Shown here piece by piece: positions 4,493-52,343 of a DNA stretch of 64,000 bases. Numbering within the stretch: the stretch's first letter is position 1; every line of letters starts with the position of its first letter. The notes under the pieces are model-generated. The model saw only the letters and a list, made by a program, of their open reading frames with translations, was not told the origin of the DNA and made no database searches. The DNA is taken from positions 111,136 to 175,135 of the IMG/VR virus record IMGVR_UViG_3300032287_003559, one strand, 5' to 3'. Source of the stretch: a virus. A program made the translations under genes and the position numbers.

Positions 4493-5188
4493 ATGAGAGT
4501 AGATCTTCATAACTTCTTTAAGCATTATGATGAAAATAATCCAAAACATGTTGCAGCAGTAGAGCAACTTGAAGTGGATCTTGCAAGTAAGAATCCAGAT
4601 TTGATCGATGATGCCTCAAACTGGGTTCGCATCTATAGAACAGTTCCTGCAGTTCCGGGAATTCTTCCAGTTCCTTATTATCCACAGACAGATAACTACA
4701 GAGACGCACAAAGAACCTGTAACTCATCTTCTTGTGCGATGTGTCTAGAATACTTTAAACCAGGCACGTTACAAGGGGCAAAGGGCGATGATGCCTATAT
4801 TCAAAAGGTATTTGCTATTGGTGATACAACTGATCACTCCGTCCAGACGAAAGTTCTGGAAGGTTATGGAGTTAAGTCACACTTCAGTTACAATCTTTCT
4901 TTCTCTGATCTTGATCGTGAGCTTGCCGCTGGGAGACCTGTCGTTATCGGGATTCTTCATAGGGGCACTTTATCTGCACCTACTGGTGGGCACATGGTTG
5001 TAGTCATCGGTAAAAAGGGTGAAGACTACGTAGTAAATGATCCGTATGGATCTTTGAATGATGGTTATACGGGAGCAGTAACCAACGGTAAAGGTGCTGT
5101 ATATAAGAAATCAGATCTGATGTATCGTTGGTTAGATCATGGTAAGGATAGAACTGGTTGGGGTCGTATTTTTGATATAAAAAAGTAG
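4493..5188 (+). CDS. C39-like (papain-fold) cysteine peptidase
   Basis: PYYPQ..RTCNSSSCAM (Cys), GGHMVVVIG (His), VVNDP (Asp); ends on A_AAA_AAG TAG. Confidence 0.85.
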   Translation: MRVDLHNFFKHYDENNPKHVAAVEQLEVDLASKNPDLIDDASNWVRIYRTVPAVPGILPVPYYPQTDNYRDAQRTCNSSSCAMCLEYFKPGTLQGAKGDDAYIQKVFAIGDTTDHSVQTKVLEGYGVKSHFSYNLSFSDLDRELAAGRPVVIGILHRGTLSAPTGGHMVVVIGKKGEDYVVNDPYGSLNDGYTGAVTNGKGAVYKKSDLMYRWLDHGKDRTGWGRIFDIKK

Positions 5189-5260
5189 AACCAACACCAC
5201 CACCAAAAAATGACATCCCTTTGTGTGGTGTTGAATTAATTAAATCTTTTGAGGGATGTC
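5179..5260 (+). other. Candidate -1 programmed ribosomal frameshift signal: A_AAA_AAG plus H-type pseudoknot
   Basis: Heptamer 5179-5185; stem 1 CAACACCAC (5192-5200)/GTGGTGTTG (5225-5233); stem 2 GACATCCCT (5212-5220)/AGGGATGTC (5252-5260). Confidence 0.8.
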
Positions 5261-5676
5261 GTTTAAATGCATATCCTGATCCATTAACCGGAGGTCTTCC
5301 AATCACAATCGGTTGGGGGAGTACAAAAGATTTTGATCGAACTCCTTTTAAGATGGGTAAAGTGATTACTCAAAAGTATGCAGACACTCTACTTGAGTTT
5401 GAGTTAAGAAATAGATACCTTCCTTCCCTACAAAAAATACCATATTGGGACGAAATGAATGAAAATCAAAGAGGGGCTTTGCTTTGCTTTGCTTACAATC
5501 TTGGTGCAGATTTTTATGGTAATTCTAACTTCAGTACTATTACAAGGATCTTAAAGAATAGGGAATGGAATAAAGTTCCTGATGCACTATACCTTTACCG
5601 TAATCCAGGAACTAAAGTTGAAGCAGGATTAGTAAGAAGAAGAGTTGCTGAAGGAAATCTTTGGTCTAGACCATAA
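5185..5676 (+). CDS. GH24 lysozyme (endolysin) domain in the -1 frame relative to the peptidase
   Basis: IKSFEGCRLNAYPD..ITIGWG, FAYNLG, GLVRRRVAE; frame open from 5176; only a TTG (5221) start before the catalytic motif and no obvious RBS. Confidence 0.88.
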   Translation, partial: VEPTPPPKNDIPLCGVELIKSFEGCRLNAYPDPLTGGLPITIGWGSTKDFDRTPFKMGKVITQKYADTLLEFELRNRYLPSLQKIPYWDEMNENQRGALLCFAYNLGADFYGNSNFSTITRILKNREWNKVPDALYLYRNPGTKVEAGLVRRRVAEGNLWSRP

Positions 5677-6007
5677 AAGGAACTGCTACACCTTCATTAA
5701 TCATTCTTTCATTTACCGTGACTGGATCTCCTACAAAATAAAGAGTTCCAAGTATTCTTCCGTACTTATCTTCTTTTGTAGTCTCAATAATCCATTCACC
5801 TTCTTTTGCGAGTTCTTTTTTTAACCATTCTTTTGCTGCAAGACCTCTTTCTTTTTCTTCTATGTCCAAAGTTCTTGTTTCTGCGGCATTAATACCTTTA
5901 AGGCGAACTCTTTGAGATAAGGTAATTCCAAATCCCAAATCAATATCAACGTCAACTGTATCACCATCAATGATTCTTTTGATTTTCTTTATTTTGTATT
6001 GATACAT
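5666..6007 (-). CDS. Thermonuclease (SNase-like) family nuclease
   Basis: IIDGDTVDVDIDLGF, RVRLKGINAAE, DKYGRILG. Confidence 0.85.
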   Translation of the reverse strand: MYQYKIKKIKRIIDGDTVDVDIDLGFGITLSQRVRLKGINAAETRTLDIEEKERGLAAKEWLKKELAKEGEWIIETTKEDKYGRILGTLYFVGDPVTVNERMINEGVAVPFMV

Positions 6008-6107
6008 TTTCTTGATTTGCAATGAGTAATATTTTATAAATGACCCAAGCGACTCCTATGAGTCCAATACCCAATAGTATATTTACACTCCAGACTACCT
6101 CTTTCAT
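5967..6107 (-). CDS. 46-aa single-pass membrane protein (MKEVVWSVNILLGIGLIGVAWVIYKILLIA...)
   Basis: Translated by hand; start overlaps the stop of 6104..6295. Confidence 0.6.
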   Translation of the reverse strand: MKEVVWSVNILLGIGLIGVAWVIYKILLIANQENVSIQNKENQKNH

Positions 6108-39970: not shown

Positions 39971-40633
39971 ATGGCGTTTTTAATGGATGATAATGCAGTA
40001 GGTGGACAGATGATGGTTGGTGCTGGAACACCAAAAGCACTTGGTATTGGACCAGCAAAAATTAATGGGTCTGCATATGTTGAGGGTCCATTACAAACTG
40101 GTGCTGCAGGTGAACATAACACTTGTAAAGCAACTTTAATGGTTGGACAATTAAGGAATAAAGATGCAAAGACAATTCCATTATATTCTTTGTGGGTAAG
40201 ACTTTATTCAAGGTTTCAAAGTTTTGTAAGAGTTGATTTACTTCTTAAGTCAACTTATATTGAAGCAAAAGTTATAAGAACTAAAATTCTTCAGGCATCT
40301 ATTAAAAATTTTGTAATTGATCACCCAACTAAAGAGGGTAAAAAATTAGTCCATACTTGTCTCGAAGGTCCAGAAAACGGAGTTTATGTTCGCGGAAGAT
40401 TGTTAAATAGGACTGAAATTGAACTACCTGAGTATTGGACTGGACTAGTTGATGAAACAACCATCACAGTATCAATTACTCCTATAGGAGCTCATCAAGA
40501 CATTATTGTTAAAAGGATAGGAGATAATAAAGTTTATCTTCAAGCAAAACCTGGAGTTCCTATTAACTGTTTTTATCATATTTTTGGAACGAGAAAAGAT
40601 GTACCTAGATTAATTACGGAGATTGAGGAATAA
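39971..40633 (+). CDS. Virion protein with FxIxHP..LxHxCLEGPE C-terminal domain
   Basis: KNFVIDHP..LVHTCLEGPENGVYVRG; paralogous to the next gene. Confidence 0.65.
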   Translation: MAFLMDDNAVGGQMMVGAGTPKALGIGPAKINGSAYVEGPLQTGAAGEHNTCKATLMVGQLRNKDAKTIPLYSLWVRLYSRFQSFVRVDLLLKSTYIEAKVIRTKILQASIKNFVIDHPTKEGKKLVHTCLEGPENGVYVRGRLLNRTEIELPEYWTGLVDETTITVSITPIGAHQDIIVKRIGDNKVYLQAKPGVPINCFYHIFGTRKDVPRLITEIEE

Positions 40634-41352
40634 TGGCTTATACATTTGAAAAGTACGGAACTTTTGCTGGTCCAGGAGTCAGTATTGAATATAGAGATAA
40701 TGATGATTTCTCGGTAGAACCATTTGAGGGTTACTTTAATTTAAGTGATGTATCAATGGTTCTCGTAAATACTTCGGAATCTCCCTCAGATTATGTTTAC
40801 ATGCACTTAAATGGAACCAGCACATCAACCGTTACTTTGGAGAGAAACTCTGGGACTATACCAAATTTTATTGTAAATGCTGATAATTCCACTTTTAGTG
40901 GTGAAGTAAAATCGAATGGTGGAGTGCATAAACTTTCCAACAAGAAAAACTTTGATATCCCACATCCAAATAAACCTGGATGGAGACTTCGCCATACCTG
41001 TCTAGAAGGTCCTGAGAATGCTGTATATTTTAGAGGAAAGTTAAAAGATACTAATATAATAGAATTTCCAGAATATTGGAAAGGATTTGTTGACCCAGAA
41101 AGTATTACAGTTACTCTAACTCAAATAGGAACATCTCAGGATTTAATTATTGAAAAAATTGAGTTAGAGACTGGTATTAGTATAAAATCCGGAAATGCTT
41201 CAAGTATTAATTGTTATTATCTAGTACACGGAACTCGTTCGGATGGGGAAAACTTAATTGTTGAGTATGAGGGTAATTCTCCAGCAGATTATCCTGGAGA
41301 TAATAGTGAATATTCTGTTGCTGGATATCATTATGATACCAAAGGGAGATAA
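40633..41352 (+). CDS. Paralogous virion protein with FxIxHP..LxHxCLEGPE domain
   Basis: KNFDIPHP..LRHTCLEGPENAVYFRG. Confidence 0.65.
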   Translation: MAYTFEKYGTFAGPGVSIEYRDNDDFSVEPFEGYFNLSDVSMVLVNTSESPSDYVYMHLNGTSTSTVTLERNSGTIPNFIVNADNSTFSGEVKSNGGVHKLSNKKNFDIPHPNKPGWRLRHTCLEGPENAVYFRGKLKDTNIIEFPEYWKGFVDPESITVTLTQIGTSQDLIIEKIELETGISIKSGNASSINCYYLVHGTRSDGENLIVEYEGNSPADYPGDNSEYSVAGYHYDTKGR

Positions 41353-42225: not shown

Positions 42226-42233
42226 TTTTTCTT

Positions 42234-42308
42234 GGGCGGGTAGTCCAACTGGCAGGAGACACCAAACTTAAAATTTGTACAGTGCGGGTTCGAATCCCGC
42301 TCCGCCTA
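42234..42308 (+). tRNA. tRNA-Leu(UAA), short variable loop, CCA not encoded
   Basis: Acceptor GGGCGGG/TCCGCCT-A; anticodon loop CT-TAA-AA (TAA 42269-42271); T arm GCGGG-TTCGAAT-CCCGC. Confidence 0.85.
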
Positions 42309-42339
42309 TTAGGAGACATTATTATAAATAACTATGGTT

Positions 42340-43103: not shown

Positions 43104-43175
43104 GCCCTTGTAGCTCAGTGGTAGAGCAACGGTTTTGTAAACCGTTGGTCGCTGGTTCAAATCCGGTCGGGGGCT
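43104..43175 (+). tRNA. tRNA-Thr(UGU)
   Basis: GCCCTTG/CGGGGGC acceptor; ACGGT-TT-TGT-AA-ACCGT anticodon arm; GGTTCAAATCC T arm. Confidence 0.93.
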
Positions 43176-50717: not shown

Positions 50718-52343
50718 ATGTTAAGCAAACAAACTACATTAGATCTTAACGGTCCTTTTCTATCGTTTGTCCAACAACCAACTTCAGTATCTGTTGCAAA
50801 CTCTGGAATTGCAACGTTTATTGGAGTTGCAACAGCAACATTTCCAACTCAATCTCCAATAAATCCAGCATCAAACAGTGGATATATTTCTTATCAATGG
50901 TACGAATCAGATCAAGCATTAACAGATAATGCAAATATAACTGGTTCTGCTACAACAACTCTTACGGTTTCTAACATCGTAAGTCCAACTGATAATGGTC
51001 GGTCATTCTATCTGCAAGCAGACTATGTTGCTTCTGCATATGGACAATCACCAATTACAGTTGGAACTGCAAGGTCTACAGGTAACGCAGTAAATGACCC
51101 TATCAGCACAAATTCTGTTTCATTAACAGTTTATCCTTTAGTTTCAGTTACAACACAACCAACATCACAAACTGCATCTCAAACAAGAACTGCAACATTT
51201 ACTGTAAGTGGAACGTCAAATGATGGATCTGCCGTCACATACCAATGGTATATTAATAACGTTGCAGTTAATAATGGATCAAACTCTATTAGTGGAGCAA
51301 TTTTCACTGTTTCTGGAGCAACATCACAAACTCTCTCTGCATCTGGAGATACTATAGGAACATATAATATTACCGCAAAAATCTTCCATCCAACAGCAAG
51401 TAATTCTCCAGTAACAAGTAACACTGCGATCTTTTCAGTTGTTTCTGCAAGGCAAATTATTAGTGTAGAACTTGTTCCAGGAAATGGTGGTAATGCAACA
51501 TTATATACATGGAATCTTTTTAGTCAAGGGCAATTTAGCATTGGTCCCGGAGAAGTACCTGCACCAAATATCATGTCTTTTTATGCTTCAGAAACTGATC
51601 TTGACGTTTTTATTGATATTTCTGCAAATGCTGGATCAGATTATGGTAGTTATAAAGGTGGGCACGGTGGAATGTCTACGATTAGACTAACACTTCAAAA
51701 AAATATAGAATATGTGATCACCTCTATAGCTCAGGTTAATGCTGGAAGTGGAATTTTCTTCTACAGAAAATCGAGATTAATTGCATGTGTTGGTGGTGGA
51801 GGGAATGCTGGATCTGCAGGAAATGGTGGCGATGGTGGTGGAGTGAATGTCGCAGGTGCAGATGGTTCTGGTAGAGGTGCTGGAACTGGTGGTTCGCTAT
51901 ATCTTCCAGGCACATTACCTTCCAATGGTATTTTTGGATCTATTACTGCTATTACTCCTAAAGCAGGAGACACTCAAGCATCTGCTCCTAATGGTGGTAG
52001 ATGTATTCCTTGTCCTAGGGGAGATTATTGGTATAATCTTGGATATAGTGCTTGTTCTGATCTTGGTGATATTCAGTTTCGTGTTGCGAATGGTAGTCTA
52101 AGCTCAAATACTGCAGTTGTATCCAGAGGATTTAAAGCGGGTTATGGTATTCGTAATACTGCAGGTGCTGGTTTAAGTGGTGGTGGAAATGGTGGAAATG
52201 GTGCTACTGGTGGAAATGGCGGAAATGGTGGTGGAGGAGGTGGAGGAGGATCTGGATATACTGATGGATCTGTGACTGTAGTTTCTACTCGCCAAGGTGG
52301 AAATACAACCACAGGAAGAATTATAATTAGAAGTGCTATCTAA
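50718..52343 (+). CDS. Adhesin-like protein with Ig-like domains and a glycine-rich C-terminus
   Basis: QQP.S...ATF..SYQW twice; GGGGGSGY glycine-rich domain. Confidence 0.75.
   Translation: MLSKQTTLDLNGPFLSFVQQPTSVSVANSGIATFIGVATATFPTQSPINPASNSGYISYQWYESDQALTDNANITGSATTTLTVSNIVSPTDNGRSFYLQADYVASAYGQSPITVGTARSTGNAVNDPISTNSVSLTVYPLVSVTTQPTSQTASQTRTATFTVSGTSNDGSAVTYQWYINNVAVNNGSNSISGAIFTVSGATSQTLSASGDTIGTYNITAKIFHPTASNSPVTSNTAIFSVVSARQIISVELVPGNGGNATLYTWNLFSQGQFSIGPGEVPAPNIMSFYASETDLDVFIDISANAGSDYGSYKGGHGGMSTIRLTLQKNIEYVITSIAQVNAGSGIFFYRKSRLIACVGGGGNAGSAGNGGDGGGVNVAGADGSGRGAGTGGSLYLPGTLPSNGIFGSITAITPKAGDTQASAPNGGRCIPCPRGDYWYNLGYSACSDLGDIQFRVANGSLSSNTAVVSRGFKAGYGIRNTAGAGLSGGGNGGNGATGGNGGNGGGGGGGGSGYTDGSVTVVSTRQGGNTTTGRIIIRSAI

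Follow-up and report, generated by a model that had tools for sequence, protein, structure and literature searches.

The locus comprises two reading frames, one for a predicted cysteine peptidase and one for a lysozyme, which meet at a slippery heptamer. Positions are those of the window, by which we mean the whole 64,000-nucleotide stretch of viral DNA that was analysed. The features are as follows.

4493 to 5188, plus strand: zero-frame peptidase ORF of 231 aa, taken from the ORF list and matching Pfam PF13529 (53.7 bits, cut-off 24)
5173 to 5175, plus strand: -1-frame stop TGA, which bounds the shift window on its upstream side, read from the sequence
5179 to 5185, plus strand: slippery heptamer A_AAA_AAG in zero-frame phase, read from the sequence
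5186 to 5188, plus strand: zero-frame stop TAG directly 3' of the heptamer, read from the sequence
5192 to 5233, plus strand: predicted stem 1 hairpin with arms at 5192-5200 and 5225-5233, from folding and covariation
5208 to 5264, plus strand: candidate stem 2 with core arms at 5212-5220 and 5252-5260, interleaved with stem 1, from duplex energy and a codon null
5185 to 5676, plus strand: -1-frame continuation, a Pro-rich linker (about 5185-5223) followed by a GH24 lysozyme (PF00959) and TAA at 5674-5676
5221 to 5223, plus strand: TTG, read as Leu in the -1 frame, the sole conceivable internal start, read from the sequence and not conserved

The peptidase ORF begins at ATG 4493 (or TTG 4484) and ends ATA AAA AAG TAG at 5188, and its zero-frame codons ATA AAA AAG place the heptamer in X_XXY_YYZ phase. 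The -1 frame runs without a stop from 5176 to the TAA at 5674-5676. Because it is closed upstream by the TGA at 5173-5175, only 10 nt, with the heptamer inside them, permit the joining of both ORFs, and this upstream stop arrangement is common to almost all relatives. Before the catalytic Glu of the lysozyme the window holds no ATG, and TTG 5221 is the only ATG, GTG or TTG codon. Codon counting gives 231 aa for the peptidase and 394 aa for a trans-frame fusion. An earlier reading of this DNA from its letters alone (the sequence-only reading) had described a heptamer in the correct phase at the end of the peptidase gene, a GH24 lysozyme without an ATG before its catalytic motif, products of about 231 and 394 aa, and two perfect, interleaved 9-bp stems after a 6-nt spacer; when checked against the sequence and the ORF listing, all of its sequence statements proved correct. 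A GGGG run at 5160-5163, 15 nt upstream, recalls the upstream Shine-Dalgarno-like enhancer that is specific to E. coli dnaX; as it codes for part of the invariant motif Gly-Trp-Gly, selection acting on the RNA and on the protein are inseparable at this point. Elsewhere in the window, a convergent 118-aa ORF (5666-6022, minus strand) overlaps the final 11 nt of the lysozyme ORF, and there are phage genes for tRNA-Leu(TAA) at 42233-42309 and tRNA-Thr(TGT) at 43104-43175; tRNA-Lys is absent from the window.

The first ORF matches the Pfam family Peptidase_C39_2 with an E-value of 4.4e-14, and its 231-aa product consists of an N-terminal helical segment of about 55 aa followed by a C39-like papain-fold cysteine peptidase domain. 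Its start, Met-Arg-Val-Asp-Leu-His, is kept in 16 relatives, and the Cys and His columns are invariant in the peptidase alignment. A sequence search against solved structures gave no match for the peptidase. An AlphaFold model of the 231-aa protein (pLDDT 78.8) was matched by Foldseek to the C39-like peptidase 3erv, the peptidase domains of PCAT1 and ComA, and PeiR, a pseudomurein endoisopeptidase, with E-values from 9e-7 to 3e-4. The profile score above the cut-off and the papain-like fold of the model together identify the 231-aa product as a predicted C39-like papain-fold cysteine peptidase.

The second ORF matches Phage_lysozyme (PF00959) at 9.3e-23 (81.4 bits against a cut-off of 22.3). 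Solved GH24 lysozymes align to this domain from the Gly-Val-Glu-Leu-Ile-Lys segment on, and in the alignment with the solved lysozyme 9kbq the Glu of Phe-Glu-Gly, the Asp of Tyr-Pro-Asp and the Thr of Thr-Ile-Gly fall in matching columns, which we take to be the catalytic positions by comparison with T4 lysozyme. On these sequence matches the second domain is a GH24 lysozyme of the T4/P22 type, and it is the only PF00959 match in the whole 175-kb virus record (82% complete). Homologues of the C39-like peptidase occur widely among the myo-, podo- and siphoviruses of cyanobacteria, frequently under the annotation endolysin; the labels carried by relatives are 'endolysin' or 'lysin'. In the 64-kb window, neither a holin nor another neighbouring lysis gene was identified. 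The host cell wall would presumably be the target of both products, and lysis, not entry, the stage at which they act. Synechococcus phage MA01 and its relatives (L207 783-2051) encode a 422-aa 'endolysin' with an N-terminal C39-like peptidase of 40% identity, the C-terminal half of which has no match to the window lysozyme by tblastn.

The arrangement of the two domains was compared across 80 viral contigs with 79-91% peptidase identity and six isolates, a protein-based sample that was selected without regard to the junction. Here 56 loci have the heptamer and a -1-frame lysozyme with no ATG, and at 21 the heptamer is absent and the lysozyme gene starts at an ATG of its own within an ATGA overlap. 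The domains lie in separate genes at three loci, form an in-frame fusion of 405 aa at one (ACG-2014f), occur in reversed order within a single ORF at another (S-CREM1), and at four loci there is no lysozyme nearby. The peptidase tree implies that the architecture switched at least three times, on well-supported branches. At 18 of the ATGA-overlap loci (for example L053 2190-2351) the lysozyme is extended at its N-terminus by a conserved segment of about 50 aa; the idea that this is a copy of the peptidase N-terminus was dropped, as BLASTP found nothing and a profile comparison gave 1.7% probability over 14 columns. Two related contigs (L019 3520-3615 and L034 3369-3462) carry a PhotoRC-II RNA motif (Rfam RF01717, 81-84 bits) downstream, some 1.2 kb from the lysin locus.

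Within this sample, the heptamer is in phase at every one of the 56 junctions where a start-less -1-frame lysozyme directly adjoins the peptidase, and an adjoining start-less lysozyme without the heptamer was found at none of the loci in the 80 contigs and six isolates. Conservation of the heptamer and of the -1 phase across homologues had been put forward as a check by the sequence-only reading, and it is borne out here, with the caveat that AAA AAG also encodes Lys-Lys in the protein. An added pattern scan brought the total to 89 distinct heptamer junction types; the heptamer was a requirement of that scan, which is informative only for sequence downstream of it, and heptamer conservation rests on the protein-based set. 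Across the 89 types the zero-frame stop lies directly 3' of the heptamer in 78 and one codon later in the other 11. The linker read in the -1 frame is highly variable in sequence, spans 12-28 codons and contains no stops. The isolate S-PM2 has the same cassette: its peptidase gene ends GCA AAA AAG TAA, and the lysozyme follows in the -1 frame with no ATG and a covarying stem, although it is annotated as a 72-aa 'putative lysin' fragment.

Downstream of the heptamer, after a 6-nt spacer, CAACACCAC at 5192-5200 pairs with its complement at 5225-5233 in a perfect 9-bp Watson-Crick helix. The predicted fold of this stem 1 has an energy of -14.0 kcal/mol (z -3.3), and none of 200 shuffles was as good. 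A hairpin follows the heptamer in the 83 junction types without an ATG (-7.9 to -32 kcal/mol, median -16), whereas the five types with both the heptamer and an ATG directly after it, including S-SRM01, reach only 0 to -4.6 kcal/mol. Across junction types the hairpin starts 4-8 nt downstream of the heptamer. Its 5' arm lies in the linker, and its 3' arm is always formed by the opening codons of the lysozyme domain. The arms are wholly different between clades yet complementary at the same place, as in AGTTCTATTC/GAATAGAACT, GCCAACTAAC/GTTGGTTGGC and, in S-PM2, AGCTCTACT/AGTAGAGCT.

Types differ by one codon in the register of the helix, and formal covariation counts were therefore confined to the window's type. 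In the alignment of this type (A2, 29 junction types) 91.4% of stem-1 cells are paired and five pairs are changed on both sides, and the RNAalifold consensus of the 29 relatives consists of stem 1 only, with four pairs changed on both sides. Against a null of synonymous codons, stem 1 reached p<=0.05 in only 60 of the 89 junction types; this null is weak for stem 1 because the linker residues themselves track the pairing. The comparisons establish stem 1 as a conserved, covarying structure downstream of the heptamer, and the compensatory change that the sequence-only reading had proposed as a check is present in this stem, both as these four to five pairs and as the differing arms of other clades.

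The same comparisons bear on the possibility that these are two ordinary genes, in which translation of the lysozyme would begin at TTG 5221 or some non-canonical codon and the hairpin would serve in translational coupling or mRNA stability. TTG 5221 is in frame and upstream of the catalytic Glu, cyanobacterial genes often lack clear ribosome-binding sites, and the ATGA-overlap relatives show that a free lysozyme can work. Nonetheless, the nearest relatives have CTT at this codon, and in 45 of the 89 junction types the stretch from the heptamer to the catalytic Glu is free of ATG, GTG and TTG codons alike. Furthermore, TTG 5221 is located between the two stems, and the hairpin is absent where an ATG is present. 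Independent initiation fails for want of a conserved start, and we regard it as very unlikely.

A fusion of identical sequence could also be produced by transcriptional slippage, in which the polymerase adds one A within the A6 run, placing part of the mRNA in frame. The homopolymer run is located exactly at the junction, as this explanation would have it. Against it, the run is exactly six A followed by G in 89 of 89 junction types and is never longer, and neither the phase of the heptamer nor the A in the last position of the preceding codon varies. Ribosomal slippage, moreover, needs a structure such as the conserved, covarying hairpin that lies 4-8 nt downstream, and polymerase slippage does not. 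Polymerase slippage is therefore an improbable source of the fusion, also when extended to one added U in the U8 run of S-CAM7, which is long enough for it.

In S-CAM7 (KU686212; L206 1493-1538) and two contigs, the peptidase, which is 55% identical to that of the window in S-CAM7, has the 3' end GTT TTT TTT CCA CAG TAG. The junction contains U_UUU_UUU in phase, followed after 5 nt by a predicted 8-bp hairpin, GTAGAACC/GGTTCTAC. The lysozyme is in the -1 frame, which opens just 3 nt before the U run, and the lysin is annotated as a 90-aa fragment; sister contigs of this type are in-frame fusions. The presence of two different canonical slippery sequences at one junction is hard to explain except by recoding.

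Homopolymers are error-prone, and misassembly of the A run, or a gene pair in decay, could in principle give the same picture. One contig, L108, keeps the heptamer and stem, yet its ORFs are fused in frame; it had been considered as a counter-example on account of -1-frame stops and was dropped as such once recognised as an in-frame fusion. Against an error or decay, the same arrangement of frames recurs in over 100 contigs that were assembled independently, as well as in two isolates, S-PM2 and S-CAM7, and both domains are intact and conserved. We give this explanation a negligible probability.

The locus has an in-phase heptamer, an overlapping -1 ORF without a conserved start and a covarying structure 6 nt downstream. 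Our main reading, to which we assign a probability of roughly 0.85, is that it represents a programmed -1 ribosomal frameshift cassette producing a 231-aa peptidase and a 394-aa peptidase-lysozyme fusion. Several observations support this: the in-phase heptamer at all 56 start-less -1-frame junctions; a hairpin that is present where the ATG is absent and weak or absent where the lysozyme is provided with an ATG; the occurrence in nature of in-frame peptidase-lysozyme fusions; and the recurrence of the cassette in S-PM2, together with U_UUU_UUU and a hairpin at the S-CAM7 junction. The central proposal of the sequence-only reading, a -1 slip at A_AAA_AAG yielding peptidase and fusion, thus finds strong support in the comparison with relatives. 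From sequence comparison, the -1 slip is most likely the sole route to the lysozyme in this T4-like cyanophage, as well as in the model phage S-PM2 and in about ninety distinct relatives.

Under this model, most ribosomes translating the peptidase ORF would terminate at TAG 5186 and release the 231-aa C39-like cysteine peptidase. A fraction, carrying Lys-tRNAs on AAA-AAG, would pause as they meet the stem-1 hairpin, which lies 6 nt further on and would resist unwinding; in the window's lineage, stem 2 may lock this hairpin into a pseudoknot. The paused ribosomes would slip back by one base and read on through the Pro-rich linker into the GH24 lysozyme, giving the 394-aa fusion. A fixed ratio of the two products, with which recoding would set the muramidase dose, as suggested by the sequence-only reading, would be a possible consequence. 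The occurrence and rate of the slip, as well as the formation of stem 2, are what we infer from the sequence.

The candidate stem 2 pairs GACATCCCT at 5212-5220 with its complement at 5252-5260, again as a perfect 9-bp Watson-Crick helix, and can be extended to 14 bp (5208-5221 with 5251-5264). The 64-kb window contains three places at which two perfect 9-bp stems interleave, compared with 0.07 expected under a second-order Markov model, and only four of 100 Markov simulations contained any such pair; of the three, only the one at 5192-5260 sits after a slippery heptamer. The other two lie at 40716-40812 (ORF 40633-41352) and 50791-50863 (ORF 50718-52343), with no heptamer beside them. The duplex energy of stem 2 is -17.7 kcal/mol, which makes it as strong as stem 1 in the window, and a rough estimate for the pseudoknot with a standard penalty is -24 kcal/mol, compared with -20.9 kcal/mol for the best nested fold. 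With 9-bp stems the loops measure 11, 4 and 18 nt (overall ranges 7-11, 3-4 and 17-18 nt), lengths that should suffice for an H-type fold.

Comparison with relatives gives a narrower distribution for stem 2 than for stem 1. A strong stem 2 is seen in only four junction types, those of the window's group, three close types sharing 10-14 bp. About 17 neighbouring junction types have a shared stem-2 core with the register shifted toward the 3' side, and the two groups extend this core in opposite directions. In most other clades the stem-1 loops are 5-10 nt long, there is no downstream partner and stem 2 cannot form. In the 29-type alignment 76.7% of stem-2 cells are paired, one of 12 pairs is compensatory and five pairs depart solely through unpaired cells. 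Each arm falls within the codons of a conserved peptide motif (Asp-Ile-Pro or Glu-Gly-Cys), and the Ile-Pro motif is kept at the protein level in clades without stem 2.

It is possible, and to our minds only slightly short of an even chance, that the frameshift is real with the stem-1 hairpin as its sole stimulator, and that stem 2 is a by-product of codon choice in these two peptide motifs. The short loops of most clades, the single compensatory pair and incomplete pairing, an RNAalifold consensus restricted to stem 1 and the retention of Ile-Pro in proteins where stem 2 is absent are all in keeping with a hairpin acting alone. Codon usage in the window points the other way: only one of 500 synonymous-codon resamples paired as well as stem 2 (p 0.002), and its arms use GAC, ATC, GAG and GGA, each of them a minority codon (16-27%) in the window's genes. 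Additionally, GAG at the Glu codon co-occurs with a complementary CCCT or CCTC in the linker (odds ratio 9.8, p 9e-6, calculated over rows that are not independent). The extension of the shared core in opposite directions by two groups, and the loop lengths, which appear adequate for an H-type fold, likewise speak against the hairpin as sole stimulator. We put a functional pseudoknot in the window's lineage at about even odds; on sequence grounds it is plausible and confined to that lineage, and is not a feature of the family. The H-type pseudoknot originally proposed for this site is therefore upheld in one half: stem 1 is conserved and covarying, whereas stem 2 is limited to a subclade and a shifted neighbour. 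Likewise, the compensatory change to be checked in both stems was found in four to five pairs of stem 1, but in only one of the 12 pairs of stem 2.

Mechanistically, the proposed cassette resembles known systems. In E. coli dnaX, which encodes tau and gamma, an in-phase A_AAA_AAG with a stem-loop about 6 nt downstream yields two proteins in a ratio set by slippage. The locus described here shares the heptamer, the phase, the downstream stem-loop at about 6 nt and the derivation of two proteins from one gene. In dnaX, however, the shifted product is the shorter one, owing to an immediate stop in the -1 frame, whereas the shift in the window would add a whole enzyme domain. OrfA-OrfB of the IS3 family, including IS911, uses A_AAA_AAG and a downstream hairpin or pseudoknot, and the long fusion arises only through a -1 slip. 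The likeness to these elements extends to the short upstream product, the slip-only long fusion and a downstream ORF without its own start. They encode transposases of mobile elements, however, while the window encodes a phage cell-wall hydrolase pair without transposase homology.

Among phages, tail-assembly chaperones of the lambda G/GT type use a -1 frameshift to set the ratio of a short to a long protein. They are alike in being a conserved phage -1 frameshift that fixes this ratio, and differ in gene class, in their heptamers and in usually lacking a strong downstream structure. The in-frame two-domain ORFs of cyanophages (ACG-2014f with 405 aa, contigs L210-L218 and L108) have the same domains in the same order with a short linker; as single ORFs they give the fusion only, whereas the window's type could also release the peptidase alone. 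Rfam matched no known frameshift element at the junction. A match to the Rfam family IMES-3 (16 bits against a gathering score of 55) was set aside as chance, as it failed to recur at the junctions of 12 relatives. In full-text literature searches, no account of frameshifting in S-PM2 or in any cyanophage lysin came up, in agreement with the sequence-only reading, which knew of none in a cyanophage lysin. The mechanism would be of a known, dnaX/IS3-like kind in a new gene class.

The junction may also be a site of recombination. The window peptidase is closest to that of one group of relatives (L008, 91%), the lysozyme of which is only 62% identical to the window's, and the window lysozyme (85%) and junction match another group (L031). 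These identities point to an exchange of modules close to or at the frameshift site. The 5' arm of stem 1 doubles as coding sequence for the linker, and the linker residues would accordingly be dictated by pairing to the first lysozyme codons. A broader reading joins these points: lineages would tune the peptidase-to-muramidase ratio via RNA structure, with the plain hairpin, the pseudoknot of the window, the different heptamer, the lysozyme's own ATG and the full fusion as its states, pairing would dictate the linker residues, and the junction would be the joint at which modules are swapped. We put this forward tentatively and consider it rather doubtful as a whole.

The implications of the proposed cassette extend to a whole group of cyanophage genomes, the annotation of which would need correction: the lysin is annotated as a truncated fragment of 72-90 aa in S-PM2 and S-CAM7, and elsewhere as two 'endolysins'. 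Programmed recoding would also be placed in phage lysis enzymes, a gene class in which we found no published case. Hairpin, candidate pseudoknot, other heptamer, own start and in-frame fusion form a natural series in which RNA structure can be related to the ratio of two enzymes, and S-PM2 on Synechococcus WH7803 provides a culturable system. For picocyanobacteria, the amount and form of lysin may bear on the timing of the burst.
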